Virus record (IMG/VR): IMGVR_UViG_3300032083_000594
Location: 1-52,846 of that record
DNA length: 52,846 nucleotides
From: a virus
Lineage: Duplodnaviria > Caudoviricetes
Direction: 5' to 3' (one strand)
Part shown: positions 77-52,846 of the stretch, one piece after another
Position numbering within the stretch: position 1 is the stretch's first letter
Layout of the letters: each line of letters begins with the position of its first letter
Notes under the pieces: model-generated
Told to the model about the DNA's origin: nothing
Seen by the model: the letters and a program-made list of their open reading frames with translations, nothing else
The model's database searches: none
Position numbers and translations under genes: made by a program

Positions 77-256
77 GTGAGTAGAAGGATTGAGAGCCCG
101 GTGGTTTTAATTAACCACTGGCGCTGGCTCGAGGCCAACGGCTACAAGAAGGAAGCGGCAAGCTGCAAGCGTCAAGCCTCAAGCTTGACAAGATTAAGAT
201 ATAATGATATAGGAGACTATAGGAGAAAGAAATATGAAAACAAACGAAGCTCTTAA
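77..256 (+). CDS. small hypothetical protein (59 aa, not in ORF track)
   Basis: GTG start overlaps the TGA of an upstream partial ORF (GTGA at 77-80); reads MSRRIESPVVLINHWRWLEANGYKKEAASCKRQASSL... Confidence 0.45.
   Translation: MSRRIESPVVLINHWRWLEANGYKKEAASCKRQASSLTRLRYNDIGDYRRKKYENKRSS
152..186 (+). repeat. short tandem heptamer array (CAAGCNN)x5
   Basis: GAAGCGG CAAGCTG CAAGCGT CAAGCCT CAAGCTT read directly. Confidence 0.85.
185..213 (+). promoter_or_regulatory. putative sigma70-type promoter for the gp88-like gene
   Basis: TTGACA (185-190), 17 nt, TATAGG (208-213); AGGAG RBS before ATG 234. Confidence 0.5.
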
Positions 257-836
257 AATTATAGGCGGCTCCCTGAGCAAGCCTTCAAAGATGCCTGGCT
301 GGTCGATAGGTTTACCTGCCAAAGAATGCAAGACTGGCGTCAAGCTACAGCAGGTCCCGGGCTCAGTGTGTTATGACTGTTACGCGCTCAAAGGTTGTTA
401 CGTCTTCAAGGTTGTTCAGGATGCACAATACCGAAGACTGGAAGCTATCAAGAGCTCAGACTGGGTCCAGGCAATGGCTCACCTGATCAACAGCAAAAAG
501 CCTGATGTGTTTAGATGGCACGATTCAGGTGATGTACAAGATCTTAATCATCTTAAAAAAATTTATGAAGTCTGTAAATTGACACCTACAAAAAAGCATT
601 GGATGCCTACCCGTGAAGCGTGGATAAAGGACCATCTTCAGGACAAGCCAAACAATTTAGTCATACGATTTAGCGCGCCCATGGTGAACCAGCGGGCGCC
701 TCAGTCGTGGCCTAACAGCTCAGAGGTTGTCGACTCAGGGGCCAGCTGTCCAGCTGCTTCTCAAGACAACGAGTGTCGAGACTGTAGACAATGCTGGGAC
801 GCCACAATTAAAACAGTTTCATATGGTAAACATTAA
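234..836 (+). CDS. phage Gp88-like Cys-rich protein (putative Fe-S protein)
   Basis: N-terminal SKPSKMPG, CxxCYA, RWHDSGD and C-terminal CxxCxxCW...YxxH motifs typical of the phage gp88 family; good RBS. Confidence 0.75.
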   Translation: MKTNEALKIIGGSLSKPSKMPGWSIGLPAKECKTGVKLQQVPGSVCYDCYALKGCYVFKVVQDAQYRRLEAIKSSDWVQAMAHLINSKKPDVFRWHDSGDVQDLNHLKKIYEVCKLTPTKKHWMPTREAWIKDHLQDKPNNLVIRFSAPMVNQRAPQSWPNSSEVVDSGASCPAASQDNECRDCRQCWDATIKTVSYGKH

Positions 837-837
837 A

Positions 838-1092
838 ATGACTTTAGTTTTTAGACATCCAAAGTATTATAAAGAATTACGCAAGCGTAATAAATCGGAT
901 CAGGCCATTAGCTACGAGCACTCGACGGAGTCTGAAGGCGTGCGCCCTGGTCCGGGCCAACAGCATCAAGCTTCAAGCATCAAGCTTCAAGCGTCAAGCT
1001 CAAAGAGCCTCAAGCTTCAAGCGGCAAGCATCAAGCCCCAAGCAGCAAGCATCAAGCTTAAAGCCACAAGCGGCAAGCTCCATGATACGTGA
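838..1092 (+). CDS. hypothetical protein whose C-terminus is encoded by the heptamer array
   Basis: ATG 838 directly follows the gp88 stop; the low-complexity QASSIKLQASS tail comes from the repeats; overlaps a convergent gene. Confidence 0.4.
   Translation: MTLVFRHPKYYKELRKRNKSDQAISYEHSTESEGVRPGPGQQHQASSIKLQASSSKSLKLQAASIKPQAASIKLKATSGKLHDT
961..1080 (+). repeat. tandem heptamer array (CAAGCNN) of about 15 units
   Basis: CAAGCTT CAAGCAT CAAGCTT CAAGCGT ... CAAGCGG CAAGCAT CAAGCCC CAAGCAG CAAGCAT CAAGCTT ... CAAGCGG CAAGCTC. Confidence 0.9.
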
Positions 1093-1362
1093 ACCACGGA
1101 AAAGTTTCACGGTACCCGGACCGAGGGCCTCTGCTAAGATAAATGAGTTGTTAGGATGGCGTACATGAAACGCTATTTGGTGTGGTGAGAATCTAATTTT
1201 ATTCCCCTTGCATACCTTTAGTTCGACAGTGAAAAAGTGACCATTAGTATTATACCCCAATAGATCAGGAGTACCGGATAAGCTAAGGTTCTCAAGTCTG
1301 ATCCACGATATTTCAGGTATATATTTTTTAAGTTTTGCATATAATTTTTGTTCTGGTTTCAA
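1000..1362 (-). CDS. VRR-NUC-like PD-(D/E)XK nuclease / Holliday junction resolvase
   Basis: E near the N-terminus, GTPD, VELK and SPHQIAF motifs. Confidence 0.75.
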   Translation of the reverse strand: MKPEQKLYAKLKKYIPEISWIRLENLSLSGTPDLLGYNTNGHFFTVELKVCKGNKIRFSPHQIAFHVRHPNNSFILAEALGPGTVKLFRGSRIMELAACGFKLDACCLGLDACRLKLEAL

Positions 1363-1368
1363 GGGAAC

Positions 1369-1608
1369 TTAGTAGTCTCTTTGAAGTTTTTCTGGCAAGA
1401 TAAGACGAGAAGGTTTTTCTGTTTTCAAAACCAATCTATGTGCATTTCGACCCGGCTGACCAATGATTGGAACTGTATTTTCATGCACTTCCATTCTTCT
1501 AATCGCATGTAGCTTTCCATCTTTCTCTACATAGATAACTGCATTCTTAATAGCGTCAGAACCTTTTGTAAAATTACTCAAGAATAATTGCAAGTCTTGA
1601 ACTCTCAT
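1369..1608 (-). CDS. hypothetical protein
   Basis: 79 aa ORF, TAATG-coupled to the upstream gene. Confidence 0.7.
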   Translation of the reverse strand: MRVQDLQLFLSNFTKGSDAIKNAVIYVEKDGKLHAIRRMEVHENTVPIIGQPGRNAHRLVLKTEKPSRLILPEKLQRDY

Positions 1609-1820
1609 TAATCTTTTCGTTTTAACTTGTTAGATAAATCCTCTATCACTTTTTTATAACCTTGCAACAAATTTTCTTTGCTTTGATTTTTATACCAAAA
1701 TTTTTTCCAGAAGTAGATTTGCTTTTGGGCATCTCTTAAAATCTGTTGATAAAACTTAATAGTATTTTTTAAGCTATCAATTTGTTTGGTTAAATCTAAA
1801 TTTCCTCGATCATCTTTCAT
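1608..1820 (-). CDS. hypothetical coiled-coil protein (probably leaderless)
   Basis: ATG 1820 (or GTG 1823) lies immediately downstream of a promoter. Confidence 0.65.
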   Translation of the reverse strand: MKDDRGNLDLTKQIDSLKNTIKFYQQILRDAQKQIYFWKKFWYKNQSKENLLQGYKKVIEDLSNKLKRKD

Positions 1821-1823
1821 CAC

Positions 1824-1857
1824 TTGACAATATAGGATAGTTCCCTTAAATTGTCAA
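1824..1857. promoter_or_regulatory. overlapping divergent promoter pair
   Basis: + strand: TTGACA 1824-1829, N17, TAAATT 1847-1852; - strand: TTGACA 1857-1852, N17, TATATT 1834-1829. Confidence 0.75.
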
Positions 1858-1858
1858 T

Positions 1859-2383
1859 ATGGGAGTACCAAAAAGATTAACAGAAATGCAACAAAGATTT
1901 GCTGAGTTTTTAGTCTTCGGAGGACCTGAAGGTCCTATGACTAAACGTGAGGCAGCGATAGCTGCTGGGTATAGCAAAGACAGAGCAATGCGTGAAGGAT
2001 CAGAACTAACCAACCCAAAATATTCTCCACTTGTTGTAAAATATATTGGTGAACTAAAAGAAGAAAGACTTAGAAAACATGAAGTGACTTATGAAGGTCA
2101 CGTTGCTGAGCTTGCAAGACTTAGAGAGGCCGCTTTAAAAAAAGGATCATTCTCTTCTGCAGTGAACGCGGAAGCAAACAGAGGAAAAGCAGCAGGATTA
2201 TACATAGATAGGAAAATAATAAAAACAGGAAAACTAGAGGACCTATCAGAACAAGAGCTAGAAGCAAAAATGAAACAGATTTTAGACGACTACTCACAGA
2301 TAATAAATGTAACTCCGACACCTATAGCTTCTGAATCTTCTTTACCCAATCACGAGGAATCATCGTCCGATCCCCAAAAGTAA
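1859..2383 (+). CDS. terS: terminase small subunit
   Basis: LTxMQxxF...AAIAAGYS HTH signature, then a helical oligomerisation region with AVNAEANRGKAAGLY. Confidence 0.8.
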   Translation: MGVPKRLTEMQQRFAEFLVFGGPEGPMTKREAAIAAGYSKDRAMREGSELTNPKYSPLVVKYIGELKEERLRKHEVTYEGHVAELARLREAALKKGSFSSAVNAEANRGKAAGLYIDRKIIKTGKLEDLSEQELEAKMKQILDDYSQIINVTPTPIASESSLPNHEESSSDPQK

Positions 2384-2609
2384 AACTACCATCATCTTCT
2401 CTATCGTAAGAGGCAAATAATTTAATTGATTTTTTATCTTTAGAATATAACCAACCCTCATTGACAGGTCTTGCTAACTTCATTTTGTCAAATTCTTTGT
2501 CGGTAGCCCAGCCCGAATCGCTCACACAATCGATCCACTCCACCCGGACTTTTGGATAAGGTATGTCGGGAGTTATTGAGGCAACAGCTTTTCTTCTTTT
2601 CCTAGGCAT
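2322..2609 (-). CDS. conserved phage hypothetical protein
   Basis: VxVEWxDxxSDSGW...GWL...IPxxWV pattern; convergent overlap with terS. Confidence 0.7.
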   Translation of the reverse strand: MPRKRRKAVASITPDIPYPKVRVEWIDCVSDSGWATDKEFDKMKLARPVNEGWLYSKDKKSIKLFASYDREDDGSFTFGDRTMIPRDWVKKIQKL

Positions 2610-2619
2610 AAACTTTTTT

Positions 2620-3288: not shown

Positions 3289-4064
3289 ATATCCTCCTTT
3301 TTATTTTTAAAGTCTTCTGCTTTCATTGGTGTTGTTCTCTCTTTTTCATCATGTTTTAATTCATGATACATATCTAATCTTTTTAAAAATTTATGTTTCC
3401 ATTTACGAAGTTCTGCACCTTCAACTTTGAATTCTTGATAATATAAATCAGGAGTACAAATCATTATAACCCCTTGTTTTATTTGACTATTATGTACATA
3501 GTCATGGGCCATGCAGTATGCAGCAATCTGCATAAAGTAATCTTCAATCCAATCTTCTCTTTTTGGTCTATTTGATTGTTTAAAATCTACAACAGTATCT
3601 TTGCCATTATGTACGCAAACCAAGTCAGTAGACCCAGCGTATAACCCAGGATAATACAATGTGACTTCCGAGCCGTAATACTCTTCCACCGGTGCAAGAC
3701 CGATCTCAATAACTTTATCGGCCATGGCTTTCGCCTTCTGTCCGAGTTCTGTAAGATCATCGTAGCCAGTTCCGAGAACATAATGTTCGAGGAATTTGTG
3801 CATGGCAGTCCCCCGCCTACTACTAAGATTCTTGATTCGTTCTGCTTCTTGCTCTCCAACTTTAGCCGTCCAGTTTTTTAAAAATTGTTGATCTTTGGTA
3901 GCGCCTAATATCGTAGTTACACTAGGAAGTCTAGAACCATTTACATCATAGAGCCGTGTTCCGTGGTCCTCGATCCGTGAGGCATCGACGTAGGTATACT
4001 TACCATTGTGCTTGATCGCTTTACCAATGTTATGGTATTCTTTTATATCTTCATCACTCATCAT
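3285..4064 (-). CDS. PD-(D/E)XK exonuclease
   Basis: PSVTTIL, RGTAMH, E-x-x-L, YAGSTD, VDFK and QIAAY motifs. Confidence 0.85.
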   Translation of the reverse strand: MMSDEDIKEYHNIGKAIKHNGKYTYVDASRIEDHGTRLYDVNGSRLPSVTTILGATKDQQFLKNWTAKVGEQEAERIKNLSSRRGTAMHKFLEHYVLGTGYDDLTELGQKAKAMADKVIEIGLAPVEEYYGSEVTLYYPGLYAGSTDLVCVHNGKDTVVDFKQSNRPKREDWIEDYFMQIAAYCMAHDYVHNSQIKQGVIMICTPDLYYQEFKVEGAELRKWKHKFLKRLDMYHELKHDEKERTTPMKAEDFKNKKEDI

Positions 4065-4890: not shown

Positions 4891-5026
4891 AAAATTCCCC
4901 TTCCGAGTCACAGTCCCAGCACTGATGTACTTGGTCCTTTCCCTCTGTTGCTACTTTTAAATATCCATTGCCCTTACACGTTGGGCAAATAGTTATTGTA
5001 ACTTTAGCTTTTTTTAATTTTTCCAT
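4835..5026 (-). CDS. DnaJ-type zinc-finger small protein
   Basis: CPTCKGNG ... CWDCDSEG. Confidence 0.7.
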   Translation of the reverse strand: MEKLKKAKVTITICPTCKGNGYLKVATEGKDQVHQCWDCDSEGEFYEVDDMGWIDDGTSDSLH

Positions 5027-5177
5027 TTAATTTCTTTGCTTTCTCGTTTGCTATTGACTCAATTGTTTTACTTATAGATAATTTTGCATCGGGCAATAAT
5101 ATCTTTGATAACTTATCTAATGTAGCGTATGTTTCTTTTGTTAGAGAAACATTTTTATACTTTGTCATGTCTGTCAT
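5004..5177 (-). CDS. small putative ribbon-helix-helix DNA-binding protein (57 aa, not in track)
   Basis: MTDMTKYKNVSLTKETYATLDKLSK...SISKTIESI has a beta-helix-helix pattern; AAGGA RBS; upstream TTGACA at 5234-5229. Confidence 0.6.
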   Translation of the reverse strand: MTDMTKYKNVSLTKETYATLDKLSKILLPDAKLSISKTIESIANEKAKKLNGKIKKS

Positions 5178-5736: not shown

Positions 5737-5905
5737 GTACCTTTGTTCCGTGATTCAAAACATTTTTTAATCCTGATGCTTTCATAGTTATGTCAACACC
5801 ATAAGACTTCCATGCTTGTTTCATTAAGTTAAGTTCTAACAACAGACTAGACCACTGGCCTTGTGCTGCACCTTCTACTTTTATTGTTACTATTTTTTCT
5901 TTCAT
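5678..5905 (-). CDS. hypothetical protein (probably leaderless)
   Basis: 75 aa ORF; promoter TTGACA 5939-5934, N16, TACATT 5917-5912 places +1 at the ATG. Confidence 0.65.
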   Translation of the reverse strand: MKEKIVTIKVEGAAQGQWSSLLLELNLMKQAWKSYGVDITMKASGLKNVLNHGTKVHDGSNNTKRRTVSADTRNR

Positions 5906-6758: not shown

Positions 6759-7119
6759 TTGCTCTTACCTTATCTTTTAATTCTTCTACATCTTCTAGAA
6801 GTTTTTCTAATTGTTCTCTTAAAAATTCTATATTAACTTTGTTTGTCATATTCATCTCTTGAGTCGCCTCCATTTTTTCGACGGTCTTATAAAGATCCTC
6901 GATTAAAAAATGTTGTTCCTGGTCCGTGGGTATTTGTTCAGACTTCTTTAACAGATCATTTTCAAACAACTCACGTGATGTCTCCAGCGATACTAGCCTT
7001 GCCGTAAGCTCGGTATAAGCGAACACGCCGGCTGCGACAAGTAAAATTAACGATGCTACCGTCTTCATCGGCATCTGTACAGCTGCTTCTTCACTTATAT
7101 TTAAAGGTTTTTTACTCAT
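6736..7119 (-). CDS. membrane-anchored coiled-coil protein
   Basis: TM segment VASLILLVAAGVFAY followed by heptad-rich sequence. Confidence 0.7.
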   Translation of the reverse strand: MSKKPLNISEEAAVQMPMKTVASLILLVAAGVFAYTELTARLVSLETSRELFENDLLKKSEQIPTDQEQHFLIEDLYKTVEKMEATQEMNMTNKVNIEFLREQLEKLLEDVEELKDKVRANGNGTHQ

Positions 7120-8786: not shown

Positions 8787-10748
8787 TCATTTAATATTAC
8801 CCCAGTTTGGTCCAGATTCAAAGTCAACTTTATTCTTAACCTCTAGAGTTATAGTTTGTTCCATTGTTTGTTTGATCAACTCTGCTTCGTGGTCCGTGAT
8901 TGAAAAACAAAGTTCATCGTGAATTTGTATATGAGGTATTATACCTTTTTCATATAAATCTACCATAGCCTTCTTTGTCATATCTGCAGCTGAACCCTGT
9001 ATCAATCTATTCAAAGCTTTGTACGTAAATGCTGGCGTGTAGTATCTTTCAAACCAATCCATGTAATTTGGATCTATTTTCTTTTCTTTAAATTTATCTA
9101 AAATCTCTGCTTTAAATGCTTCTCTAGCCTGTTCTTCTGTATACAAAGTTACCTGATTAAATCTATTTGTTTCTGGGTTCCATTCTTTATTTGTTGTTTC
9201 CCATTTATCAAACCTGCAAAATCTATCGTACAGTGTAAATAATAATTTATTCTTTTTAGAAAATTCTATTAACTCTTGTGATAGTCTTCTAACAAAAGGT
9301 ACTCTATTATGATAATCGTTAAATAAAGTCTTTGCTTCTGTTGACTCTAATCCTAATTCTTTCTGTAATTTTATCTTACCCATACCATAGAAGAGACCTA
9401 GATTAATTGTTTTTGCCTGTTTCCTGGAGATATTAGCCATGTCAGCGACTATCTGATGAAAATCTGCATCATCCTTGTCAAATTCTTCTTGAAGGTTCTC
9501 TGTGCCTGGTAAACCAATTTTAATAGCATAGTGTACTACAATACGAGGTTCTTGTTGTGAGTAATCAAAACTGCCCCATTTACATCCATCTTCTGGTATA
9601 AACAGTTCTCTCATCTTAGCACCAATATAGCCTTTCGATGGAATCTGTTGTAAGTTTGGATTGCTCATTGAGAATCTTCCCGTAACTGTACCACCTGCGT
9701 CCGATCTAATTTGATTTATATCTGCATGTATTCTGCCTTCATGCACATAACCTAAAAGACCCTCAATGAATGTGTTAACTGCTTTGTCATACTCTCTTGC
9801 TTTTGCAATCATACGTAAGCATTTATTCTCGTGTGTTTTTAAATAATCTTTTGGTAGTTGTGGCATTTTAGATTTAGGAGTGACTTTGTAATCAGTTATG
9901 CCTTGATGTTGTAATAAATTTTTTATAGATGAAGCTGCCCAGATATCTACTCTGATTCCAGTCTTGTTCTGTATTGCTTTTACTATTTGATCTCTACGTT
10001 TTTTAAGATGTCTACCAAACAGGATAGCTTGAGCGGTATCAATTTTAACGCCTTTAAATTTCATGTCAACTAAACAAAGAAATAATTTTGTTTCTAATTC
10101 AAATATTTTTCTACAAGTCTTTTGCTCTCCATCTTCTTTAGTATATAATACTTCATCAATTTTTTTATTAAATAGATTCCATAACTTGTATGTTAGATCA
10201 ACGTCTTGCTTTGCATAGTCTTTTACAATAGATGCTGGTAGCTTATGCATATTAGTCATTGGGTCCTTAACTGTGCCACCAGACCATTCTAATGTTTTTT
10301 GTTGTAGATCGTATTTATATTTAGAATCATTAAGATAATCTTTTGATAATGCATCAAGTGAATATTTAAATCTATTCTCATCAATCACAGATGCTGCAAT
10401 CATTGTATCAACAATTCTACCTTTAATCATTTTACCAGTTACAGCTCGAATCCAACATACATCGTACATTGCATTATGAAATACTTTTGTAATCTTTTCG
10501 TTTTGAAATATTTTTTTATTAAGTGTGTCCCACATTTCCTGGGTCCTGTTAGGATCTAAATTAATATCAGAGTGTCTGATAGGAAAGTATGCTGTGTCTT
10601 TACCAGTAGTTACTGCAATACCACATATAAAACCATCATTTCTTATAGCACCTAAACCTTTTGTTTTAAGATTAGGATCATAAGTTTCTATATCTATTGC
10701 AACTGTGTCTATACCATTTAGGTCTAGGTCTTCTGGTGTATTACACAT
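8787..10748 (-). CDS. polA: family A DNA polymerase with 3'-5' exonuclease
   Basis: ExoI DIET, HNAMYD, TGRFS, motif A DYSQQEPR, motif B RKQAKTINLGLFYG, motif C QIHDEL. Confidence 0.95.
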   Translation of the reverse strand: MCNTPEDLDLNGIDTVAIDIETYDPNLKTKGLGAIRNDGFICGIAVTTGKDTAYFPIRHSDINLDPNRTQEMWDTLNKKIFQNEKITKVFHNAMYDVCWIRAVTGKMIKGRIVDTMIAASVIDENRFKYSLDALSKDYLNDSKYKYDLQQKTLEWSGGTVKDPMTNMHKLPASIVKDYAKQDVDLTYKLWNLFNKKIDEVLYTKEDGEQKTCRKIFELETKLFLCLVDMKFKGVKIDTAQAILFGRHLKKRRDQIVKAIQNKTGIRVDIWAASSIKNLLQHQGITDYKVTPKSKMPQLPKDYLKTHENKCLRMIAKAREYDKAVNTFIEGLLGYVHEGRIHADINQIRSDAGGTVTGRFSMSNPNLQQIPSKGYIGAKMRELFIPEDGCKWGSFDYSQQEPRIVVHYAIKIGLPGTENLQEEFDKDDADFHQIVADMANISRKQAKTINLGLFYGMGKIKLQKELGLESTEAKTLFNDYHNRVPFVRRLSQELIEFSKKNKLLFTLYDRFCRFDKWETTNKEWNPETNRFNQVTLYTEEQAREAFKAEILDKFKEKKIDPNYMDWFERYYTPAFTYKALNRLIQGSAADMTKKAMVDLYEKGIIPHIQIHDELCFSITDHEAELIKQTMEQTITLEVKNKVDFESGPNWGNIK

Positions 10749-10959: not shown

Positions 10960-12512
10960 TATCTAACTCCTAATGTATATGCTCGTTGTGATGATATTGT
11001 CCAACAATCAAACTTACCTCGACTGTATGCAACATATTTTAACCTTAATTGTGTAAAGTAATCTTCTATTCTTGTTGCTGTTAGATCTACAATTACATTA
11101 TCAAATGTTAAACCTTTTACTGTGTGTATGTTTCCATATCTAACTTTAACATCGCCTTCCAAGTTAAAGCCTCTTTGTAATATTTTTTGTATATAAAGTA
11201 TTCTATCTGAATCAGTTTTAGTTCTTATTAATGAAAAGTCTCTTTGATAAGTTGAGTTTTCTTTTAAATATTTATGATGTATTAAATAGTCTATTGTATA
11301 ATCTTTATTTACCCATTCATCAAAAGTTTCTTCTCCTCTACCATGCACTATTACTTTACTACCTATGTATGTCCAAAAATCTTTTATTTGTTTTAGTGGC
11401 ATAGGTTTACCCCTTGCAAACTCCGGCCACAGCTTATGACATCTTATTTCTTTTTTTGGTACGTGGGCCGTGTTCCCTATGTGTGCATACTCTATACCAT
11501 GTTGTTTAAAAAAAGTTTTGACCCAACCATCTGACGGATTACCTCGATACGTAAACAAAAATGTTTCGTCAGTATTTTTTATTTTATCTAACAACAGATC
11601 CATTGAAGTGCATCTGTGTCTTAAACTAGGTAAGTGATAGTGATTACCAATTACATCTGTTGGTTTCCAGATTCTGTGTGTACCATAGTGATTCCATATT
11701 GGTTTTATAATCTCTTTACACAAACTATTTATAGTCTGGCTACATCTATAACCTTCTTCTAATTCTTTAGCTCCCTTTGATAACTCATAAAATCTTGTTG
11801 CGTTGGCTCCTGCAAATTCAAATATTGTTTGATCTGGGTCTCCAACAAACCAATATTCTTTTGTGTTGGTTGCCATCTTATCTAATGCTTTTGTTTGTGG
11901 TACGTTACTATCTTGTGCTTCATCAACTATTAAAACATCTATGTCCGGCTCGTTAGCCTTTTCAATAAAGTCTCTTATCATGTCATCATAGTCACAAACA
12001 TGATTATCTTTTTTATATTTTTCGTATATCTCTTGCAGCTCTTCAATAACATTTAAACTGTAAGGTTTGTAACTAAGCTTATCACATTTTTTCCAATGTT
12101 CTTTTAAAGTATGATCTTTACCAAATGCATCTTTTACATATTTATAAAACTTATGTTTGTCTCCTTCAAAGTCACTAGCATTTATTCTTTGTAGTTTAAA
12201 TCTAGACTCCATCCTACATAGGTTTATATGGTCTTGATAACTAAATAAGTCTCTTTTTAATCCTTTATTTTGACAGTATGCATGTATTGTACAGATCTTA
12301 TATTTTAAAGATTTTTTAGTTAGACCTTTTTCTTTTACTTCTGGTAGTTTTAATATTTCATCTCTTATTTCTTCTGCTGCAACTTTTGTATGTGATAAAA
12401 CTATAATCTTTTCATGAGAAAACCTTAGTAAGAGTTCTGTATATTTTTGAGTTATAAACTTTGATGTCTTTCCTGTCCCTGGAGGACCCACCATAAAACT
12501 AGGTTGTTTCAT
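10959..12512 (-). CDS. UvrD/Rep-like SF1 helicase
   Basis: GPPGTGKT, TIH, VDEAQD, GDPDQTI, YR, HTVKGLTFD, YVAYSR; AGGAG RBS favours ATG 12512. Confidence 0.9.
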   Translation of the reverse strand: MKQPSFMVGPPGTGKTSKFITQKYTELLLRFSHEKIIVLSHTKVAAEEIRDEILKLPEVKEKGLTKKSLKYKICTIHAYCQNKGLKRDLFSYQDHINLCRMESRFKLQRINASDFEGDKHKFYKYVKDAFGKDHTLKEHWKKCDKLSYKPYSLNVIEELQEIYEKYKKDNHVCDYDDMIRDFIEKANEPDIDVLIVDEAQDSNVPQTKALDKMATNTKEYWFVGDPDQTIFEFAGANATRFYELSKGAKELEEGYRCSQTINSLCKEIIKPIWNHYGTHRIWKPTDVIGNHYHLPSLRHRCTSMDLLLDKIKNTDETFLFTYRGNPSDGWVKTFFKQHGIEYAHIGNTAHVPKKEIRCHKLWPEFARGKPMPLKQIKDFWTYIGSKVIVHGRGEETFDEWVNKDYTIDYLIHHKYLKENSTYQRDFSLIRTKTDSDRILYIQKILQRGFNLEGDVKVRYGNIHTVKGLTFDNVIVDLTATRIEDYFTQLRLKYVAYSRGKFDCWTISSQRAYTLGVR

Positions 12513-13941
12513 CTGTAATCTCCTGATAGTCACCTTCGATAATTAAATCATCTTTATCAACTTCTTGGTTTAACATTCGCCATGAAACACAAGACTTAGT
12601 GCCATACTTCCCATGATTTTTTTTAGCTTTTAATATTCTTTGACATTTAATAACTAAATCTACTCTAGGTAAATTTACTTTCTGTCTGTGTAGGTAATCT
12701 TCAAACTTATCTAAATTAAACTCTAAGATATTTTTTTCTGTATTAAAGTAAGGCATACCAAAGTATGCTAATTCTTTTTTACTTGTGTATGCTTTTTCTT
12801 CTGAAATATAATTTTTAAAATGTTTTACAAATCGTAAGTCTTCTTCTGCGTCTTCAACATAGTCTTTTGATTTTTCTCTTGCTTCATACTTTCTACGCAT
12901 AATCTCTTCAAAGTCAGAAGGTTTCATCTCTGGAATCCACACTGATGCTTTACTAATTACTGCATCATAAAATAATTTTTTGTTTCTAAGTGTAGGACCA
13001 TCAACTGTAATTGTTTTTTCTACAGGTTCTCCTTGTACAACTGCATTTATTTTTACAAAATATCTATCACTTCCATATTCTATTATTTGTCCAATAGATT
13101 GTTTTGCTTCTTCACTTGTTGCTTCTTGTACGCCAATCCAACTAAACATTGTTGCAATTGTTTTTGTAGAACAACCAATAATCTCTGCAAGTTTAGGCAT
13201 ACCAAATTTTCTATTTGCTTTTTTATGTGATGTACCTTTACTTTTTCTTTTGTGACTTTCTTCGTCTTTAGCTGCAACTGCAATTTTATAAATGTAATCA
13301 TCTATGTCTTCTGTATTCCATTCTGTATGTTTAAGTAATACACCTGCAATAGCAGTGCAATAATCATCTCTTTGTCCCGAACCTGCATATGTAATACATA
13401 AAGCGGCAGCAAGAGCTATTTTACCAAGATCAACTTTAATATTACCTGGATACTCATCAATACCTTCATACTTAACCCATTCAACAACTTCATTTGTTGT
13501 ATGATATTTTGTTTCTGGAACTAGTGTATATTTATTTGCCCCATGTCTTATCTCACACAAAGTTGCGCCGTGACCATAGTCTTTGTAATAGTTTTCTAAT
13601 TCTTTTGGTAATGCAAATTTTTTGTAGTCTGAAGTACCAGACCAAAGATAATGACTTGATGGATTATTTCTTCTACCAAAAACTGCACCACATGATTTAA
13701 TGTGATCATTTGTAAATCTTTTAACAACAGGATTATCAATATCGAAATCTATATATTGATCTAGTCTAAGTCCTATTTGTTTTGTTGTGTGTTCTATTCT
13801 CCATTCTTCTTTCGTAATCTTAAAATCTGGATCGGACCACTTTTCGACCACAGCCTGCTTTGTATCGCAGGGTATGATCACCCGTCCTAGATCTATCCAA
13901 TCTTCGTACGTAACCGGAGCTTTATTTATCTTATCATTCAT
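12499..13941 (-). CDS. bifunctional primase-polymerase (Prim-Pol)-like protein
   Basis: IIPC, IGL, DFDID, SHYLW, E-IR and TLVP motifs; position in the replication module. Confidence 0.7.
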   Translation of the reverse strand: MNDKINKAPVTYEDWIDLGRVIIPCDTKQAVVEKWSDPDFKITKEEWRIEHTTKQIGLRLDQYIDFDIDNPVVKRFTNDHIKSCGAVFGRRNNPSSHYLWSGTSDYKKFALPKELENYYKDYGHGATLCEIRHGANKYTLVPETKYHTTNEVVEWVKYEGIDEYPGNIKVDLGKIALAAALCITYAGSGQRDDYCTAIAGVLLKHTEWNTEDIDDYIYKIAVAAKDEESHKRKSKGTSHKKANRKFGMPKLAEIIGCSTKTIATMFSWIGVQEATSEEAKQSIGQIIEYGSDRYFVKINAVVQGEPVEKTITVDGPTLRNKKLFYDAVISKASVWIPEMKPSDFEEIMRRKYEAREKSKDYVEDAEEDLRFVKHFKNYISEEKAYTSKKELAYFGMPYFNTEKNILEFNLDKFEDYLHRQKVNLPRVDLVIKCQRILKAKKNHGKYGTKSCVSWRMLNQEVDKDDLIIEGDYQEITDETT

Positions 13942-14747: not shown

Positions 14748-14749
14748 GT

Positions 14750-15697: not shown

Positions 15698-17128
15698 ATG
15701 AATTATAAATTTAAAACAAAACCATATAAGCATCAAATGCTTGCTTTAGAAAAGTCATGGAATAAAGAAACATACGCGTACTTTATGGAGATGGGTACAG
15801 GTAAAACAAAAGTATTAATTGACAACATGGCTATGTTGTATGACAAAGGTAAAATTGATGGTGCTTTAATTATAGCTCCCAAAGGTGTTATAAAAACCTG
15901 GTACGAGCAAGAGCTTCCTACACACTTAGTAGACCACATAGAAAATGTGACCGTATTGTGGCAACCTAATATTACAAAAGGACAACAAGAAAAACTAGAA
16001 AGTTTATTTGAAATAGAAACAGCTTTACATATTTTAGTTATGAACGTTGAAGCATTTAGCACAGAAAAAGGTATGAAGTTTGCATCTAAATTTTTAAACT
16101 CACATAAAACTTTAATGGCTATTGATGAGTCTACAACAATTAAAACACCAACTGCAAAACGTACAAAAAATATTATTAGTTTAAGTAAGTTTGCTAAATA
16201 CAAACGTATTATGACAGGTTCTCCTGTAACTAAAAACCCACTTGATTTATATACACAATGTGAATTTTTAGATCCATACTTATTAGATCATGCATCGTAT
16301 TATTCTTTTAGAAATAGATACGCTGTAATGAAGTCTATGCATGTAAGAGGTAGAACAATACAAGTCGTACATGCTTTTCAAAATCTTGCAGAGCTATCTG
16401 ATAAATTACATGGGTTTTCTTACAGAGTATTAAAAGAAGATTGTTTAGATTTACCACCTAAAAATTTTACAAAAAGACATATTATTCTTACAGGTGAGCA
16501 AAGAAAAATTTATGATCAAATGAAAAAAACAGCACTTGCTACACTTAATGGTAAAGTCACATCTACTGTAACTGTGTTGACTCAGCTTATGAGAATGCAT
16601 CAAATAACTTGTGGACATTTTACTGCTGATGATGGATCTACACAATTAATACCAAATAATAGAATTACAGAACTAATGAATGTATTAGAAGAGACTGAAG
16701 GCAAAGCTATTATTTGGGCTAACTATCAAAGAGATATTACAAATATAATAGAAAGCATTGTAAAAGTTTATGGTCCGGGGTCCGTGGTCGATTATTATGG
16801 ATTAACGCCACAAGAGGAACGACAAGATAATATACGTAAATTTCAGTCCGACCCTAAGTGCCGGTTTATTGTTGGAACCCCCTCTACGGGCGGCTATGGG
16901 ATAACTTTAACAACTGCAAACACCGTAATTTACTATTCTAACGGATATGACCTTGAGAAGCGTTTACAGTCAGAGGACCGTGCGCACAGAATAGGACAAA
17001 CAAAATCGGTAACATATGTCGACATTATATGTGAAGATACGGTTGATGAAAAGATAACAAAAGCATTACGTAAAAAAATAAATATAGCATCTGAAGTATT
17101 AGGGGAGGAGTTAAAAGAATGGATATAA
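15698..17128 (+). CDS. SNF2-like SF2 helicase
   Basis: EMGTGKT, IDES, MTGSP, GGYGITL and QSEDRAHRIGQ motifs. Confidence 0.9.
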   Translation: MNYKFKTKPYKHQMLALEKSWNKETYAYFMEMGTGKTKVLIDNMAMLYDKGKIDGALIIAPKGVIKTWYEQELPTHLVDHIENVTVLWQPNITKGQQEKLESLFEIETALHILVMNVEAFSTEKGMKFASKFLNSHKTLMAIDESTTIKTPTAKRTKNIISLSKFAKYKRIMTGSPVTKNPLDLYTQCEFLDPYLLDHASYYSFRNRYAVMKSMHVRGRTIQVVHAFQNLAELSDKLHGFSYRVLKEDCLDLPPKNFTKRHIILTGEQRKIYDQMKKTALATLNGKVTSTVTVLTQLMRMHQITCGHFTADDGSTQLIPNNRITELMNVLEETEGKAIIWANYQRDITNIIESIVKVYGPGSVVDYYGLTPQEERQDNIRKFQSDPKCRFIVGTPSTGGYGITLTTANTVIYYSNGYDLEKRLQSEDRAHRIGQTKSVTYVDIICEDTVDEKITKALRKKINIASEVLGEELKEWI

Positions 17129-23161: not shown

Positions 23162-24312
23162 TATTTTCTTGGCACCCCTAGTAAAGAAAAATCCCTAGCT
23201 CCTTGTCCTAAAGCTCCATATACACCAGCAAGTGTTGTACCAACACCTAATGCAGTTTGTAATGGTGTAGGGTTAGGTATGTTTGTTGTTTGTGTTTGAC
23301 CAGGATATCCACCCATGATTCCTGTTACTTGACCAGCAAATCTATCTAACTGTTCTTGTGGTAAGAATGTTGCTTGTCTTGCTGCCTCTCTTGTTGCATC
23401 AAGTTGTGCTTGTTGTTGCGCCTGGTTCAGTGCGCCCAACTGACCTAAACGTGAAATATCTGTACCTGTTGCTTGTTGTTGTACTTGTCCAAGTTGTGCT
23501 TGTTGTCCAGCTAATCCAGATTGAAATGCACCTAAACCTTGTGTTGCTCCTGCAAACCCTGCTCTTTGTCCAGCAAGTCCTGATTGTGCTTGACTTATAC
23601 CAAATCTATTTGCAATATCTTGTTGTCTAGCTTGTTGCGCTTGACCAAAACCTTGTTGCAAGAGACCGGCTTGTAATAACGCTCGTTCTCTCGCAGCCCC
23701 TGTGCCAAACTCTGCGAGTTGCACTCCCGCTCGACCACTGCCGAGCGCACCCAAAGCTGCCTGCTGATCTCTGATAGACTGTTCTTGTATAGCCTTGTTC
23801 CGATCAAATTCTGAAAGTGTTGCATCAATTACTTGTGATTGATAAGGGGACATAAAATCTTGTACACCTTGTTGAAAAGATGTTGCTCCAGTTCCAATTC
23901 CGCCTAATGTTGTTCCAGCACCAGTTAGTTCTGTTCCTGCAGTTCCTAATTGTCCTAATGCTTGAGTTCCTAGACCAGCAGCTAATGTTGCTTGTGTTTG
24001 TGCTTGTTGTAAAAACGGTTGAAAAGATCCTACACCTTGTTGAGCTAGTGTTTGTGCTTGTGTTTGTAATGCATCTTGACCTGCTACTTGTGGTGCAAGT
24101 CCTGATAAACTTTGTTGTCTTGTTGTAAATTGTTGAGCAGCACTTTGTCTTGCTGCAAAATCACCTGCTGATTCACCAGGTTGTTGTGATATACCAGCAA
24201 GTCCTGTTGATACAACAGGTACACCTGATTGTGCTACTACTTGTTTTGCTAAATCTTGTCCTAGATCTTGAACAAATTGTGCAGGTAAAACTTGTGATTG
24301 TTGAATAGCCAT
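23161..24312 (-). CDS. Gln/Gly/Ala-rich DNA-injection (pilot) protein
   Basis: FMSPYQSQVI, ALGSGR, Q-rich coiled coil, C-terminal hydrophobic GVGTTLAGVYG. Confidence 0.6.
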   Translation of the reverse strand: MAIQQSQVLPAQFVQDLGQDLAKQVVAQSGVPVVSTGLAGISQQPGESAGDFAARQSAAQQFTTRQQSLSGLAPQVAGQDALQTQAQTLAQQGVGSFQPFLQQAQTQATLAAGLGTQALGQLGTAGTELTGAGTTLGGIGTGATSFQQGVQDFMSPYQSQVIDATLSEFDRNKAIQEQSIRDQQAALGALGSGRAGVQLAEFGTGAARERALLQAGLLQQGFGQAQQARQQDIANRFGISQAQSGLAGQRAGFAGATQGLGAFQSGLAGQQAQLGQVQQQATGTDISRLGQLGALNQAQQQAQLDATREAARQATFLPQEQLDRFAGQVTGIMGGYPGQTQTTNIPNPTPLQTALGVGTTLAGVYGALGQGARDFSLLGVPRK

Positions 24313-40941: not shown

Positions 40942-41346
40942 TTAAAACTCATGCAAGATGTCCTCTGGACTATCAATTGTTGCTAACACTTCATCGTCGT
41001 TTAGCAGACGCATTTCCCCACCATCTATTTTGATTCGACTACCTGCATAACGTGCAAACATAATCCAATCTTTCTCCTTGCACCATGGACCTTCCGGATA
41101 CCTCTCTTTATCCTTATAACATTGTGAACCCATGGCCATAACTAATCCTACTTGAGAAGCAACTTGTTGTCTTTCCAATGTAGTTTCAGCTAAATGTAAT
41201 CCACCTTTAGTTGTTTCTTTCATTTTGAAAGGTAAAACTAAAAGTCTCCAGCCTGTTGGCTTTGGTAATTTTGGTTCTTTTTTTGTAGGTTTTACACCAA
41301 CAAGTTTATTTTTTGGTGTTAATATCGATGACTGTTCCTTTTTCAT
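40942..41346 (-). CDS. groES: co-chaperonin GroES
   Basis: PTGWRLLV, TKGGLHL, FARYAG and LLNDDEVLA Cpn10 signature. Confidence 0.85.
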   Translation of the reverse strand: MKKEQSSILTPKNKLVGVKPTKKEPKLPKPTGWRLLVLPFKMKETTKGGLHLAETTLERQQVASQVGLVMAMGSQCYKDKERYPEGPWCKEKDWIMFARYAGSRIKIDGGEMRLLNDDEVLATIDSPEDILHEF

Positions 41347-44250: not shown

Positions 44251-44252
44251 GA

Positions 44253-49572: not shown

Positions 49573-51704
49573 TATTCTCCTAACATTCTAGCGATACCAC
49601 CTGATGCAAAGGCATCATCTGGCACATCATAATCAGACTCATTTACCTCGCCCTGTCTTCTGACAACTGCATCTGATTGAGCCTCAGGATCTGTCGTTAG
49701 TCTTCTAGCCTTATCTTTTCTTTTTTTGTTTTGAATAATCTCTCTAATCGTAGGTCCTTTGCCTGTCGCATATTCTTTTAGTTTAGATACATCAGAATCT
49801 AGATCTCTGATACTTGAACCACCGATCTCGTCGACCTCTATCTCATAATCATCTGGTCCATATCTTCTGCCAACAGGACCTGCCTCTGCTGTAGAAAACT
49901 CTGCTGCAGGGTTTGGTGCTCCTTCATCAGGTAATGGTTTTTTATATTCCATTTGTACTGTGTCTTCAAAAACATTATCAGGACTATCATACTCAACTCT
50001 TACAGCACCATCGTCCACGTCCTCTGTAACTCGGACCACGGAACCATCATTAAGTGTTTTCTGATGAATAGATTGTCTTTCCCCTGTTGCAAATTTTTTA
50101 GTAACGTCATCACCTTCAATAATAACTTTATTAACTAATGCATCAAACCATTCTGGTTTACCAGCAACGTTATCTGTTTTAATAATTGGAACGCTCTTAA
50201 TACCTTTTGCAGTTTTAATTGGTTTTAAAAATTTACCAACAATAGGTATTGATGCAAGACCACCTAATATTTTTAAGAAACTTCTTCTGCTCATGCCAGA
50301 CCCATTTTTAAATTGTTTTCTAAAATTAAAACCAATACCAGTATCATCTCGTCCAAAACCTTTGTTGATACCAAAACTTAACTCACCACCGCCAATATTT
50401 TTTTGTCCACCAATCTTTGCTCTATCTAAGTCAAACATTAACATCATGTCTTTTGATAAAGGAACTTTAGCAGGATCAACGTTTATCATTCTTTTAACTA
50501 TTTCTTTTAAAGCTTCTTCAGGATCATTTGTTTCAAAGGTAGGTCCCATCGATTCTTGTTTTTTATCAAAATCATATTTAATACTTGGTGCTCCTGTGCC
50601 ATTTGCATAACCAATACGTCCGCCGTCTGCTCTCTTTTCACCAAACATTCTTTCCGTATAGGCTTCAATTGTTTTATCTTTAAGTTCTGGATTTTTTTTA
50701 TAGAAAGGATCTGCATTTAATTCTTGTATAAATTCTTTTAAGTTTTGTTCTTTCTGCTCTTCGTTCATAGCTTCTAATTTTTTTCTTAGTTGATTATTTA
50801 TTAAGGCTCCAGTTGTTGCAGGAATACCAACTTCTGCAAGAGGTAGGTCCATAAACTTACCTGTCTCATTTGCTTTTAATGTTTTATCTTTAATATTTTT
50901 TAAATAATCTTTACCTGCTTGATATGGACTTTTTTTATTAAAAAAATTTAATAAAGTTTGAATACCTTTTTTACCTGTACCTAATTTATATCCTGCACGA
51001 CCGCCTGTTGCTAAGTCTTCTGGTGGATCAAATTTCTGTTTAGTTAAACCTTGATAGGCTTCATCGTAAAGTTCCATTTGATCTATTTCATCTAAATCAT
51101 AAAACTCTTTACCAAATCTTTTTTCTGCTAAATCATCTGCAACAAGTTGTGCATCGTATTTTCTATCTCCTGCAAATCCTGGTGAAGCATTGTCGATTGC
51201 TTCTTCAATCATTTTTCTATTTTTTATTCTTTGAACAGCTGCTTTGTTATCTTTTTCCATACGAGCTAATACTTCTGCTTCTCTTTGTTTAAGAGTCTTA
51301 GGTCCTTGTTCAGTTGTCTTCACTAAATCTGAATATGGATTATCTGTTTTCATTAATCCTTCTTTTAAAGTCTGTTCGTTTATTTCTTTACCACCCATAA
51401 TACCTTTTGATGGATTTATTTTTTTACCCGTCATATCAAAGACTTCACCTTTTCGATCAAACTTGCTACCCCCTAGCATATCACCAAAACGTTGTTGAAA
51501 CGCTTGGTCCTCAGCTTGTTTAACATAAGACAATATTTGATTTAATTCTTTTTCACTTGTGATCGCATTTGGATCAATGCCTAAATTTTTTAATCTATTC
51601 TCTAAAGCATTCGCAGAAAATTCTACTGCTTTGTTATTAGCAATCGCTCCCTGTTTTTTAAAAAGGGCTTTTGCTATAAAATTTCTGATAACTGTTACTG
51701 CCAT
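49572..51704 (-). CDS. large modular hypothetical protein with GG tags and an internal Tat-like motif
   Basis: 710 aa; LATGGRAGY, RADGGRIGY, FKNGSGMSRRSFLK, C-terminal FASGGIARMLGE. Confidence 0.7.
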   Translation of the reverse strand: MAVTVIRNFIAKALFKKQGAIANNKAVEFSANALENRLKNLGIDPNAITSEKELNQILSYVKQAEDQAFQQRFGDMLGGSKFDRKGEVFDMTGKKINPSKGIMGGKEINEQTLKEGLMKTDNPYSDLVKTTEQGPKTLKQREAEVLARMEKDNKAAVQRIKNRKMIEEAIDNASPGFAGDRKYDAQLVADDLAEKRFGKEFYDLDEIDQMELYDEAYQGLTKQKFDPPEDLATGGRAGYKLGTGKKGIQTLLNFFNKKSPYQAGKDYLKNIKDKTLKANETGKFMDLPLAEVGIPATTGALINNQLRKKLEAMNEEQKEQNLKEFIQELNADPFYKKNPELKDKTIEAYTERMFGEKRADGGRIGYANGTGAPSIKYDFDKKQESMGPTFETNDPEEALKEIVKRMINVDPAKVPLSKDMMLMFDLDRAKIGGQKNIGGGELSFGINKGFGRDDTGIGFNFRKQFKNGSGMSRRSFLKILGGLASIPIVGKFLKPIKTAKGIKSVPIIKTDNVAGKPEWFDALVNKVIIEGDDVTKKFATGERQSIHQKTLNDGSVVRVTEDVDDGAVRVEYDSPDNVFEDTVQMEYKKPLPDEGAPNPAAEFSTAEAGPVGRRYGPDDYEIEVDEIGGSSIRDLDSDVSKLKEYATGKGPTIREIIQNKKRKDKARRLTTDPEAQSDAVVRRQGEVNESDYDVPDDAFASGGIARMLGE

Positions 51705-51955
51705 TATCTATACTTCTTGTTAATTCTTGCATCAATTTCAATAGCGCTCTTACCTGGTAGTTGCGCTCCTGTTTTCATATCTTTACGCATTTTAAGAGGA
51801 CCTTCGACTTTATCCGGTCCTTTTAATTTACTTTTTTTCAATGCTTTATTTAAAAGATCCGTGGCTCTTGGACCTGGAAAAGTTGGTTTTTTAACGCCAG
51901 CTGCTTTCATCTTAGACTTCATAATGATGCCCATACCTTTTGTAATTATACCCAT
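51704..51955 (-). CDS. small basic protein (83 aa)
   Basis: Likely start MGIITKGMG at 51955, just after the terL stop. Confidence 0.65.
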   Translation of the reverse strand: MGIITKGMGIIMKSKMKAAGVKKPTFPGPRATDLLNKALKKSKLKGPDKVEGPLKMRKDMKTGAQLPGKSAIEIDARINKKYR

Positions 51956-51956
51956 A

Positions 51957-52846
51957 TTAATAATAACTCCTTTTTTGTTTTTCAACTTTTTCGTCGATGT
52001 AATCTTCAGGATGATCTATTAATCCACCTTGTCTGAATCGCATGATTGCTTGTGTGGTTGAGTCCACAAGATCGTCATGATCACCATAAGGAAACGCAGC
52101 ACATTCTTCAATAACGTCATCTGCGAATTTCTGCTCAGGTGCCCATATCATACCAGATTCAAATAAAGGTGCAACAGCATTTACACGTGCATGCTTATCA
52201 TTTCCACGTGAAGGTGTGAAGTTGACAACAGGTATATCCATTTGCCTAAGCTCGTACGTTAAGGGTAGGCCAGATGCTTTTGCTTCAACAATAACAGATT
52301 CTGGCATCCAATACTTATATTGATCTAATGCTAAACGTCGAAGTTCTGGAAACTCATATCGTCCTTTGATTGCATCGAGTAATATTAAATTAGCACCTGA
52401 GTCTTCATCAGGATAAAAAATACCCCAAGTAGTGATTGCACTATAATCAGCTGTCTCCTTTTTTAAAAATGCAGTATCATAAGATTGTATCACATGATGT
52501 AGTTGTGGAATATCATTACCTGTATAAGTTCGCCACCACTCACGTTTTAGTATAGCTCCTTCTTCTGCGGTTGGATTCTGCATCCACTGCGCGTTCCATT
52601 TGCCCGTGGGCAGTGTTGCTTGGACCTTCTCTAACTCATCTAACTTCCAATATTCTGGCCATACAGGTTTTTGGTCCTTTGATCCGTGGTCCATGATTGC
52701 TGGAAATTCGACCACGTGCCACTGATCAGCTTTCGCTTCTTTTTGATTCTGTATCAGTTTTCCTGTTAAATCTTTATTACTCCATCTAGTCATAACCAGC
52801 ACGATCTTACCACCTGGTTGTAAACGCTGACGTGGACCTGACGTGT
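51957..52846 (-). CDS. terL: terminase large subunit (partial; 5' end outside the window)
   Basis: RLQPGG.I..VMTRW coupling motif, QSYDTA, ADYSA, VEAKASG, DK.AR, HDDLVDS RNase H-like nuclease domain; frame open to the window edge. Confidence 0.92.
   Translation of the reverse strand, partial: TSGPRQRLQPGGKIVLVMTRWSNKDLTGKLIQNQKEAKADQWHVVEFPAIMDHGSKDQKPVWPEYWKLDELEKVQATLPTGKWNAQWMQNPTAEEGAILKREWWRTYTGNDIPQLHHVIQSYDTAFLKKETADYSAITTWGIFYPDEDSGANLILLDAIKGRYEFPELRRLALDQYKYWMPESVIVEAKASGLPLTYELRQMDIPVVNFTPSRGNDKHARVNAVAPLFESGMIWAPEQKFADDVIEECAAFPYGDHDDLVDSTTQAIMRFRQGGLIDHPEDYIDEKVEKQKRSYY

Follow-up and report, generated by a model that had tools for sequence, protein, structure and literature searches.

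The stretch of DNA considered here, the whole of IMG/VR virus record IMGVR_UViG_3300032083_000594 (52,846 bases, linear, estimated to be 86% complete; hereafter the window), carries inside its genes short runs of tandem heptads of the form CAnGGAn, and the distribution, conservation and possible meaning of these runs are the subject of what follows. The window has a GC content of 35% and consists to about 96% of open reading frames (ORFs). From 2.9 kb onward almost all genes lie on the minus strand, the exception being a plus-strand block at 15698-17601 that comprises a SNF2 helicase gene and an endonuclease V-like gene; the left 3 kb hold a GP88-family gene, a small ORF at 1000-1362 and the gene for the small terminase subunit (TerS), and the right end truncates the gene for the large terminase subunit (TerL). 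Because its portal protein is 68% identical to that of Pelagibacter phage HTVC027P, 63% to that of phage 023Pt_psg01 and 52% to that of HTVC023P, the phage can be placed by sequence in the HTVC023P-type group, podoviruses of SAR11; a portal-based search for long relatives returned no related contig longer than 22 kb. SAR11 is described in the available text of PMC9599517 as the most abundant marine bacterium, and HTVC023P-type phages as being among its most abundant viruses. A search by term of that paper and of the 2019 isolation preprint on the group brings up nothing on repeats or motifs.

Tandem heptads inside genes

An earlier note on this DNA had described a single polarised family of heptamers, GNN[CG]C[GTA]T, in 7-bp tandem register within genes, and had listed 11 such items on the plus strand right of 2.9 kb; every string that it quoted is present where it was placed. 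As a loose pattern the family is mostly background. Unless stated otherwise, comparisons are with 1000 synonymous-codon shuffles of the genes right of 2.9 kb, and there the plus strand holds 273 occurrences against 253.9±7.0 expected (a count reached by 4/1000 shuffles) and the minus strand 153 against 150.7±6.1. Within the loose family, however, lies a sharper core that is real: the octamer GDTCCGTG occurs nine times on the plus strand against 0.6±0.7 expected (0/1000 shuffles; 0.4 expected under codon-order shuffles) and once on the minus strand against 0.3. Since this octamer, which reads CACGGAHC on the minus strand, was sharpened after inspection of the data, independent tests were added. 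An unbiased scan of all 8-mers (300 shuffles) ranks GGTCCGTG first, with 3 occurrences against 0.04 expected, and has TCCGTG among the top 6-mers (10 against 3.1 expected), while pairs of the loose motif in 7-bp register number 8 against 1.76±0.97 expected (0/1000 shuffles). A further test makes no use of the octamer and counts runs of three adjoining CA.GGA. units that match at 12/15 positions or more; it finds 11 clusters on the minus strand of the window against 1.5±1.1 expected (0/100 shuffles) and none on the plus strand. These clusters, the single octamers and one counter-oriented pair are as follows.

1078..1098, minus strand: heptad cluster of three units (12/15), abutting array 2 of the CAAGCnn repeats described below; majority orientation by the three-heptad test
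3945..3979, minus strand: strongest in-gene cluster (14/15), five heptads that include two CACGGAHC cores; lies within the exonuclease gene
5745..5752, minus strand: single octamer CACGGAAC in a small ORF; present in one relative as well
6921..6928, minus strand: single octamer CACGGACC
8878..8898, minus strand: heptad cluster near the C-terminus of DNA polymerase A
11452..11479, minus strand: heptad cluster of four units, UvrD-like helicase gene
16766..16793, minus strand: heptad cluster in the plus-strand SNF2 helicase gene, antisense to the gene
23311..23331, minus strand: weaker heptad cluster of three units (12/15)
25063..25104, minus strand: heptad cluster of weak units (best 12/15)
25196..25223, minus strand: CAAGC/CATGG units clustered within a structural gene; HTVC027P has CAAGCnnCAAGC at the orthologous place as well
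27348..27368, minus strand: heptad cluster with octamer, virion structural gene
41074..41094, minus strand: heptad cluster of three units, GroES-like gene
50031..50044, plus strand: counter-oriented pair CGGACC ACGGAAC
51856..51863, minus strand: single octamer CACGGATC
52675..52702, minus strand: heptad cluster of four units (13/15), large terminase gene

Seven items of the earlier list (those at 3951, 8884, 11458, 16772, 25195, 27354 and 52681) pass the three-heptad test; those at 5745, 6921 and 51856 are single octamers without a three-heptad cluster, and the item at 10922-10935 is neither. The clusters at 41074, 25063, 23311 and 1078 had not been listed.

The tandem register emerges most directly from 27 distinct isolated sites, at which only flanks that had played no role in site selection were scored. 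Upstream, C is found at position -14 in 17/27, G at -11 in 16/27, C at -7 in 14/27, A at -6 in 20/27 and G at -4 in 18/27; downstream, G stands at +10 in 15/27 and at +11 in 17/27, and C at +14 in 16/27. This enrichment has P values of 1e-5 to 1e-8, and at the same 27 sites a register shifted by 3 gives no flank signal. The element can therefore be described as a run of three to six tandem heptads CAnGGAn on the minus strand, the best unit being CACGGAH followed by C, and the 7-bp register claimed by the earlier note is borne out by register pairs, three-heptad clusters and flanks alike. Its remark that units occur in different reading frames also holds, in that all three frames are used; across related loci around polA, frames 0/1/2 account for 16/34/23 in-gene sites and three sites are antisense. 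The units inside one site are not copies of one another, and a single consensus recurs at 27-34 unrelated sites. Sites are spaced 1-14 kb apart, about one per 5 kb, with the highest density in replication genes, and no relation between in-gene sites and gene starts was seen.

Could such counts result from chance combined with codon or composition bias? It would speak for this explanation that the loose pattern is near its shuffle expectation, that the octamer was defined after the data had been inspected, and that the pentamer GDTCC is enriched antisense to genes in all four phages compared, motif-poor ones included. The comparison with codon-shuffled genomes that the earlier note had proposed nevertheless finds core counts and polarity above the shuffles, none of which reaches them (0/1000 and 0/100); the excess is replicated independently in relatives, and a 7-bp flank register cannot arise from a 3-bp code, so that chance is a highly improbable source of the element. 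The GDTCC enrichment itself (183 against 137 in the window; 189 against 148, 221 against 175 and 127 against 113 in the other three phages, HTVC027P, 023Pt_psg01 and HTVC023P) reflects a general bias of context and does not depend on the heptad sites. Other words, too, exceed shuffle expectation on the plus strand right of 2.9 kb, namely AAAGTCA (17 against 3.9), TGCAAGA (15 against 4.5), AGTCCTG (10 against 2.0) and AGTCATGG (4 against 0.2).

As regards orientation, 10/11 clusters and 8/9 octamers lie in the sense strand of their own gene. The SNF2 copy breaks the correlation with gene direction, as the earlier note had maintained, being antisense to its gene and still in the genome-wide orientation, and the counter-oriented pair at 50031-50044 that it had singled out is likewise real.

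Recurrence and turnover among relatives

The polarity recurs well beyond the window. In 79 polA loci of related IMG/VR contigs (517 kb, with polA turned to plus), CACGGAHC occurs 76 times in the orientation of the window and 3 times in the opposite one, the reversed-pattern control giving 24 and 2; orthology links many of the sites, and the 76 are not independent events. Five whole related records (G001-G005) together hold 27 in the majority orientation and 2 in the opposite one, with reversed controls totalling 6, and a further relative, G006 (99% complete, 61.9 kb), has 9 octamers against 0. Three-heptad clusters on the majority strand exceed shuffles in G001 (8 against 2.8), G006 (11 against 4.3) and G002 (9 against 0.6). 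The cultured relatives, by contrast, show no excess of octamers (per strand 0/0 in HTVC027P, 0/0 in 023Pt_psg01 and 0/1 in HTVC023P), their three-heptad clusters number 1 against 0.3, 0 against 0.3 and 1 against 1.4 expected, respectively, and unbiased 6- and 7-mer scans of their genomes bring out no equivalent polar word. Over IMG/VR the three-heptad pattern is found in at least 121 loci; 104 of the 121 listed are homologous to HTVC023P-type proteomes, and the remaining 17 are mostly GC-rich perfect heptamer repeats. The heptad word could serve as a sequence marker for one clade. Bacterial genomes contain at least 123 stretches with the pattern, in many phyla, and no Pelagibacter title appears among the 80 matches listed.

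This distribution bears on the idea of a Chi-like signal read by the host AddAB or RecBCD enzyme, which would protect or recombine phage DNA from one end. Chi and KOPS/SRS are over-represented oriented octamers read by a motor or a nuclease moving along DNA, and the element resembles Chi in being over-represented, G-rich on one strand, polar and present about once per 5 kb. Chi sites, however, are single short words, not tandem heptads; more generally, Chi and KOPS/SRS are single words of host chromosomes without a 7-bp register, whereas the heptad word is absent from cultured sister phages of the same host group. The cultured relatives that infect Pelagibacter HTCC1062 have 0, 0 and 1 octamers, and the 80 listed bacterial matches to the three-heptad pattern include no Pelagibacter title. 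A host-read Chi signal consequently appears very unlikely.

Individual sites show how the word is kept. Synonymous-site conservation in related phages, which the earlier note had named as a check, is seen at the site near the PolA C-terminus (8878-8898), where the octamer is kept in 13/14 gap-free orthologs and the third positions of ACG, GAC and CAC are invariant while neighbouring third positions vary; in one ortholog (L198) the perfect unit is displaced by one heptad, owing to T>K and E>G. A second PolA site lies in motif B (RxxAK). Most lineages have there an Arg codon AGA/AGG, then K/S, Q/E and GCT/GCA, and one sublineage has xCA CGG AHC AYG GCC, with residues changed and rare codons used; what varies within the sublineage (S/P, T/I/N and M/T in the protein) falls only on the word's degenerate positions. 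In the subclade of the window itself this motif-B site is missing. The SNF2 site is kept in relatives whose SNF2 proteins are 74-77% identical, and in one group of them a Gly>Trp difference brings a unit nearer to the consensus. To judge from these alignments, relatives gain, lose and shift sites lineage by lineage with the DNA word preserved, which is the behaviour of dispersed cis signals and not of fixed regulatory elements.

At what level, then, would such a signal be read? CAnGGAn runs might act in mRNA, bound by an RNA-binding protein or setting mRNA processing or stability. The heptad unit resembles the A(N)GGA core of CsrA sites, nearly all clusters and octamers lie in the sense strand, and the plus-strand clusters of the GP88 region are sense as well. 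An RNA-level element is nonetheless rather unlikely, given that the antisense SNF2 site is conserved and its changes improve the DNA word, that the 50031 site is antisense too, that sites are unrelated to gene starts, and that the ORFs scanned (not every small ORF included) contain no CsrA-like gene. A reading on DNA rather than on mRNA is argued for mainly by the antisense SNF2 site, which keeps its orientation and is conserved, and which belongs to a single gene block.

It is also conceivable that the runs are neutral heptamer microsatellites, a mutational by-product in tolerant parts of proteins, possibly with a weak two-tetrad G-quadruplex potential. Prokaryotes are known to contain heptameric repeats in excess (PMC4692102), and the 17 unrelated loci among the 121 listed viral ones (mostly), as well as many bacterial matches, are perfect heptamer repeats. 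Against this, the units of any one site are unlike one another and follow a consensus common to 27-34 unrelated sites, one site falls in the core of PolA motif B and not in a loop, octamer polarity reaches 48 against 3 in the eight records discussed below, and the nn of the CAAGCnn arrays varies, unlike the products of slippage. Neutral origin therefore has little to recommend it. The bacterial heptameric simple sequence repeats (SSRs) of the GGGNATC type (Rehm 2015, PMC4692102) share with the element a 7-nt period and strand asymmetry; their units, as there described, are near-identical, mostly intergenic and under-represented in coding DNA, whereas those of the window are degenerate, follow one consensus across sites and lie in genes. 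Because the SSR class is intergenic with near-identical units, the in-gene heptads are, by sequence, best regarded as not belonging to it.

CAAGCnn arrays around the GP88 gene

The left end of the window holds a second set of heptads, which the earlier note had counted to the same family in the opposite orientation.

153..184, plus strand: array 1, about five heptads CAAGCnn immediately before the GP88-family gene, its final unit running into TTGACA (TRF, period 7)
234..836, plus strand: GP88-family gene, Cys-rich, enclosed by the two arrays (Pfam PF17338, E 2.6e-25; phrog_1392)
962..1079, plus strand: array 2, about 17 heptads CAAGCnn with one register slip, overlapping the 3' end of the convergent ORF 1000-1362 (TRF)
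1000..1362, minus strand: small ORF beside array 2, kept next to the arrays in relatives (phrog_2165, E 1.1e-11)
1859..2383, plus strand: TerS gene, conserved neighbour of the array module (Pfam Terminase_2; phrog_51)

The units at 152-186 and 961-1080 are indeed true tandem arrays (TRF gives array 2 a period of 7, 16.6 copies and 71% matches), but they have a different core, CAAGC, and CAAGCnn shares with CAnGGAn only 3/5 defined positions (C1, A2 and G4), so that the case for a single family is weak. Arrays and in-gene runs are moreover separable, because HTVC027P has arrays but 0 in-gene octamers. The nn of the arrays covers all 16 dinucleotides. ORF 1000-1362 looks by eye like a PD-(D/E)XK/VRR-NUC-like nuclease and may encode one.

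A four-unit CAAGCnn pattern occurs in at least 173 stretches of IMG/VR, and tblastn in the 173 listed array loci yields 132 hit rows for the GP88 protein, 123 for ORF 1000-1362 and 48 for TerS. More than 100 related viral contigs, and Pelagibacter phage HTVC027P as well, show the same layout of arrays and GP88 gene, usually in the order short array, GP88 gene, long array, convergent small ORF and TerS, and every array of the listed loci is sense with respect to GP88. In HTVC027P the arrays flank gp33; 023Pt_psg01 has only degenerate GCTYG-rich stretches and HTVC023P none. Around the GP88 gene of 023Pt_psg01 (MW574966, L184), three copies of a GGGCCCACCC[TG]CCCC word, at 15440, 16245 and 16995, stand where the clade of the window has its CAAGCnn arrays. 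Some relatives (L081, L027) have no GP88 gene between the arrays, and in metagenome contigs (runs X1, X5 and X13) array 1 is connected with array 2, with joints such as 186 to 1018 and 178 to 981. Either the direct arrays might bring about a loss or gain of the GP88 cassette, or the joints might result from faulty assembly.

Of 334 distinct arrays of at least three units, 53 end directly in TTGACA, and 47 of these 53 are followed at a spacing of 16-18 by a -10 box with at least 4/6 matches. Because this subset abuts a -35 box, the CAAGCnn arrays could be a second set of heptad iterons, operator-type binding arrays for a small regulator, a proposal that we hold to be evenly balanced. Heptads abutting promoters are also the arrangement of omega/ParB in plasmid pSM19035, as presented in the available text of PMC9499535. 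In five loci (L018, L022, L023, L028 and L030) a near-palindrome, GGTCCNGGA, lies between the -35 and -10 boxes that follow the arrays, and the same word is present in the SNF2 heptad site. Two other ideas about the arrays were set aside. A heptad-repeat peptide from 838-1092 was considered, but an array on the plus strand cannot hold stops in any frame, and its openness is uninformative; RNA-RNA pairing between array transcripts and in-gene heptads was dropped as no complementarity was found by eye.

The arrays also alter the picture of where orientation changes. The earlier note had put the switch at 2.6-2.9 kb, but the cluster at 1078-1098 still has the majority orientation; counting the arrays as kin, the flip is at array 2 (about 1.08 kb), where both orientations converge. 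Relatives have heptad-like clusters of the opposite orientation directly beside CAAGCnn arrays and inside the GP88 gene. The stretch at 2640-2905, where the switch had been placed, is gene-poor, with poly-C runs, 11-bp repeats of the GGTATCGCAAG / GGTGTCGCAAG type (TRF, 2753-2781 and 2875-2903) and a palindrome with an EcoRI-like centre, and has the appearance of an origin or operator region.

A KOPS-like signal that guides or pauses a DNA translocase, either the terminase during packaging or the machinery of genome ejection, would suit a polarity that extends along nearly the whole genome and flips beside TerS at array 2, as well as the sites in and beside TerL and the perfect CACGGAY arrays upstream of TerL or TerS in high-GC relatives. 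Site density, however, is not even but peaks in replication genes, and TerS and TerL are common to motif-poor clades; we know of no terminase that reads sequence during translocation, and this possibility is an unlikely one. The relatives in question (L392, L423, L384 and L412) are distant and GC-rich (0.52-0.60), and it is possible that their perfect arrays form a bridge between in-gene heptads and array-type elements.

A proposed oriented DNA signal and its candidate readers

An oriented signal at the level of DNA, as the earlier note had proposed, fits frame independence, word-preserving changes and the SNF2 site better than protein, codon usage or chance. We therefore favour, at a probability of roughly 0.5, the view that the in-gene element is a strand-specific recognition site on DNA for a phage protein. 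A protein encoded by the phage would bind CAnGGAn units in 7-bp register, the bound units would mark one strand for an enzymatic act, and this act would be tied to a directional DNA process, such that sites keep one orientation whatever the direction of the local gene. It is the asymmetry of the signal, its dispersal, its orientation along the genome and its lineage specificity that suggest an enzyme working on one strand in a directional process. Strong polarity, a cost in rare codons and residue changes, and site-by-site turnover are the signature of a cis-acting system concerned with DNA direction, and such systems are known from bacterial chromosomes and, as enigmatic nicks, from a few phages. 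Two more specific versions are contained within this general statement. As a tentative possibility, the sites could serve priming or loading by the replication module of the clade, which comprises a UvrD-like helicase and an AEP primase that also has a helical and a winged-helix domain; with still less assurance, they might be sites of localized single-strand nicks of the T5/phiKMV/tf kind.

Two kinds of known system, polar genome words and heptad iterons, are those to which the finding relates. The available text of PMC3517423 reports for phage tf 14 copies of a 9-mer, 5'-TACT/RTGMC-3', all on the top strand and all nicked, and similar enigmatic nick sites in phiKMV-like phages and T5. These sites are asymmetric words of about 8-20 nt that are lineage-specific, lie within genes and number 4-14 per genome of 45-60 kb, all or nearly all of them on one strand (PMC3517423), traits that the element shares; the distribution of its octamer between strands is 9 against 1 in the window, 9 against 0 in G006 and 48 against 3 in eight records. 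The words of the window, known here from sequence alone, differ in being tandem 7-bp repeats, and no clade-specific nickase candidate accompanies them. For heptad iterons, omega/ParB of pSM19035 provides solved examples of unit-by-unit binding (PMC9499535, available text): its units, like those of the window (arrays of 5 and about 17, in-gene runs of 3-6), are contiguous, 7 bp long and made of a short core with variable positions, several contiguous ones are needed, and they lie at promoters and are bound by a small ribbon-helix-helix (RHH) dimer, an RHH-like candidate being encoded in the window. The register suggests that the in-gene runs, too, might be bound cooperatively unit by unit in the manner of omega. 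Omega heptads, as far as PMC9499535 describes them, nonetheless occur in both orientations, are intergenic and work with ParA, whereas the in-gene runs are polar and intragenic, and no ParA-like protein is found among 59 ORFs (PHROGs) or the Pfam-scanned ORFs of the window. A third comparison is with the AEP primase ORF904 of pRN1, which is sequence-specific and primes only at GTG (PMC2034472, available text). The plus-strand octamer core ends in GTG, and one protein of the window has, like ORF904, a prim-pol fold followed by a helical domain; this protein differs from ORF904 in having no helicase domain and in having a winged helix, and the in-gene run is a tandem of 21-35 nt instead of 3 nt, its general heptad holding TG and not GTG.

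The two candidate readers are the following.

12499..13941, minus strand: candidate reader 1, a protein of 480 amino acids that combines an AEP primase-polymerase fold with a helical domain and, at the C-terminus, a winged helix (structure model); restricted to the motif-rich clade
5004..5177, minus strand: candidate reader 2, a ribbon-helix-helix-like protein of 57 amino acids (fold comparison)

The 480-aa protein has 438 homologs, none of them named, and gives no match to Pfam, NCBIfam or PDB sequences. Its model (pLDDT 83.4) returns nothing in Foldseek at E <=0.001, but resembles the prim-pol domain of pRN1 (3m1m_A, Z 10.3, rmsd 3.2, 159 aligned) and 1ro2_A (Z 9.8), while its C-terminus resembles the winged helices of Cch, SaPI Rep and MCM8 (Z 5-7). 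A winged helix is the kind of domain that Rep-type initiators use for iteron binding. On the basis of this model, the family would be a widespread, unannotated type of primase or initiator of marine phages. Homologs are found in all motif-rich records and in none of the three cultured phages, which carry another 'primase' at this place; the eight records with the AEP protein are all motif-rich, with 48 octamers against 3 in 275 kb, and the count is 5 against 2 in 345 kb for the seven records that carry the other primase, which makes the AEP clade 12-fold denser. At window 13995-15650, adjoining the primase gene, three consecutive genes match the Pam3 phage gp34-, gp33- and gp32-like Pfam families.

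The 57-aa protein is modelled (pLDDT 68.5) as a free N-terminus followed by two helices, and the rows of its fold comparison are almost all RHH proteins (NikR, Arc, ParD, MazE, TraM, ParB of pCXC100 and omega) at weak Z scores of 3.2-4.6. Among 11 informative records, nine have both the ORF and arrays, one has neither and one has the ORF without arrays. The type of the RHH beta-strand (KNVSL as opposed to KSLAV/KSVAL) was considered as a better correlate and rejected as not separable from clade; the record informative on this point (G009) is marginal, with 7 against 3.9±1.0.

Several observations weigh against a DNA site read by these proteins. Neither priming nor nicking explains the register, because known primase sites comprise 3-5 nt and known nick sites are not tandem heptads. 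Orientation was set against transcription at a single inverted gene block; the heptad-like clusters of the plus-strand GP88 region follow the local gene direction, and because they are sense too, 'sense strand' accounts for all sites except the SNF2 and 50031 ones. The link with the 480-aa protein is confounded with phylogeny, all eight records belonging to one polA clade, and primase type had to be rejected as an exclusive correlate, given that 80 HTVC027P-type polA loci with the other primase hold 34 against 2 (703 kb, 15 distinct sites); a third polA clade, too, holds a conserved three-heptad site. Comparison of the gene content of the records revealed no clade-specific nuclease. The fold match of the 57-aa protein to omega is weak (1irq_B, Z 3.2; best Z overall 4.6), Pfam assigns its ORF to no RHH family, and the protein occurs in motif-poor clades as well. 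For the arrays, finally, a simple promoter scan of window 1-3300 lists no promoter after array 1.

Whatever the reader, the element offers a handle on DNA replication and processing in these uncultured phages, in the form of defined oligonucleotides and two candidate proteins. A wider proposal, which we regard as doubtful, is that of a polar 'heptad code', in which cooperative 7-bp iterons within coding sequences orient a replication or DNA-processing machine of the phage along its genome. If true, it would be a viral counterpart, in an abundant clade of marine podoviruses, of the chromosome polarity signals of the KOPS/Chi/Ter type, and polarities would converge at the long CAAGCnn array next to TerS.

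Elsewhere in the window, ORF 42834-43418 contains a tandem duplication of 132 bp at 42987-43250, present in two copies that are 96% alike.

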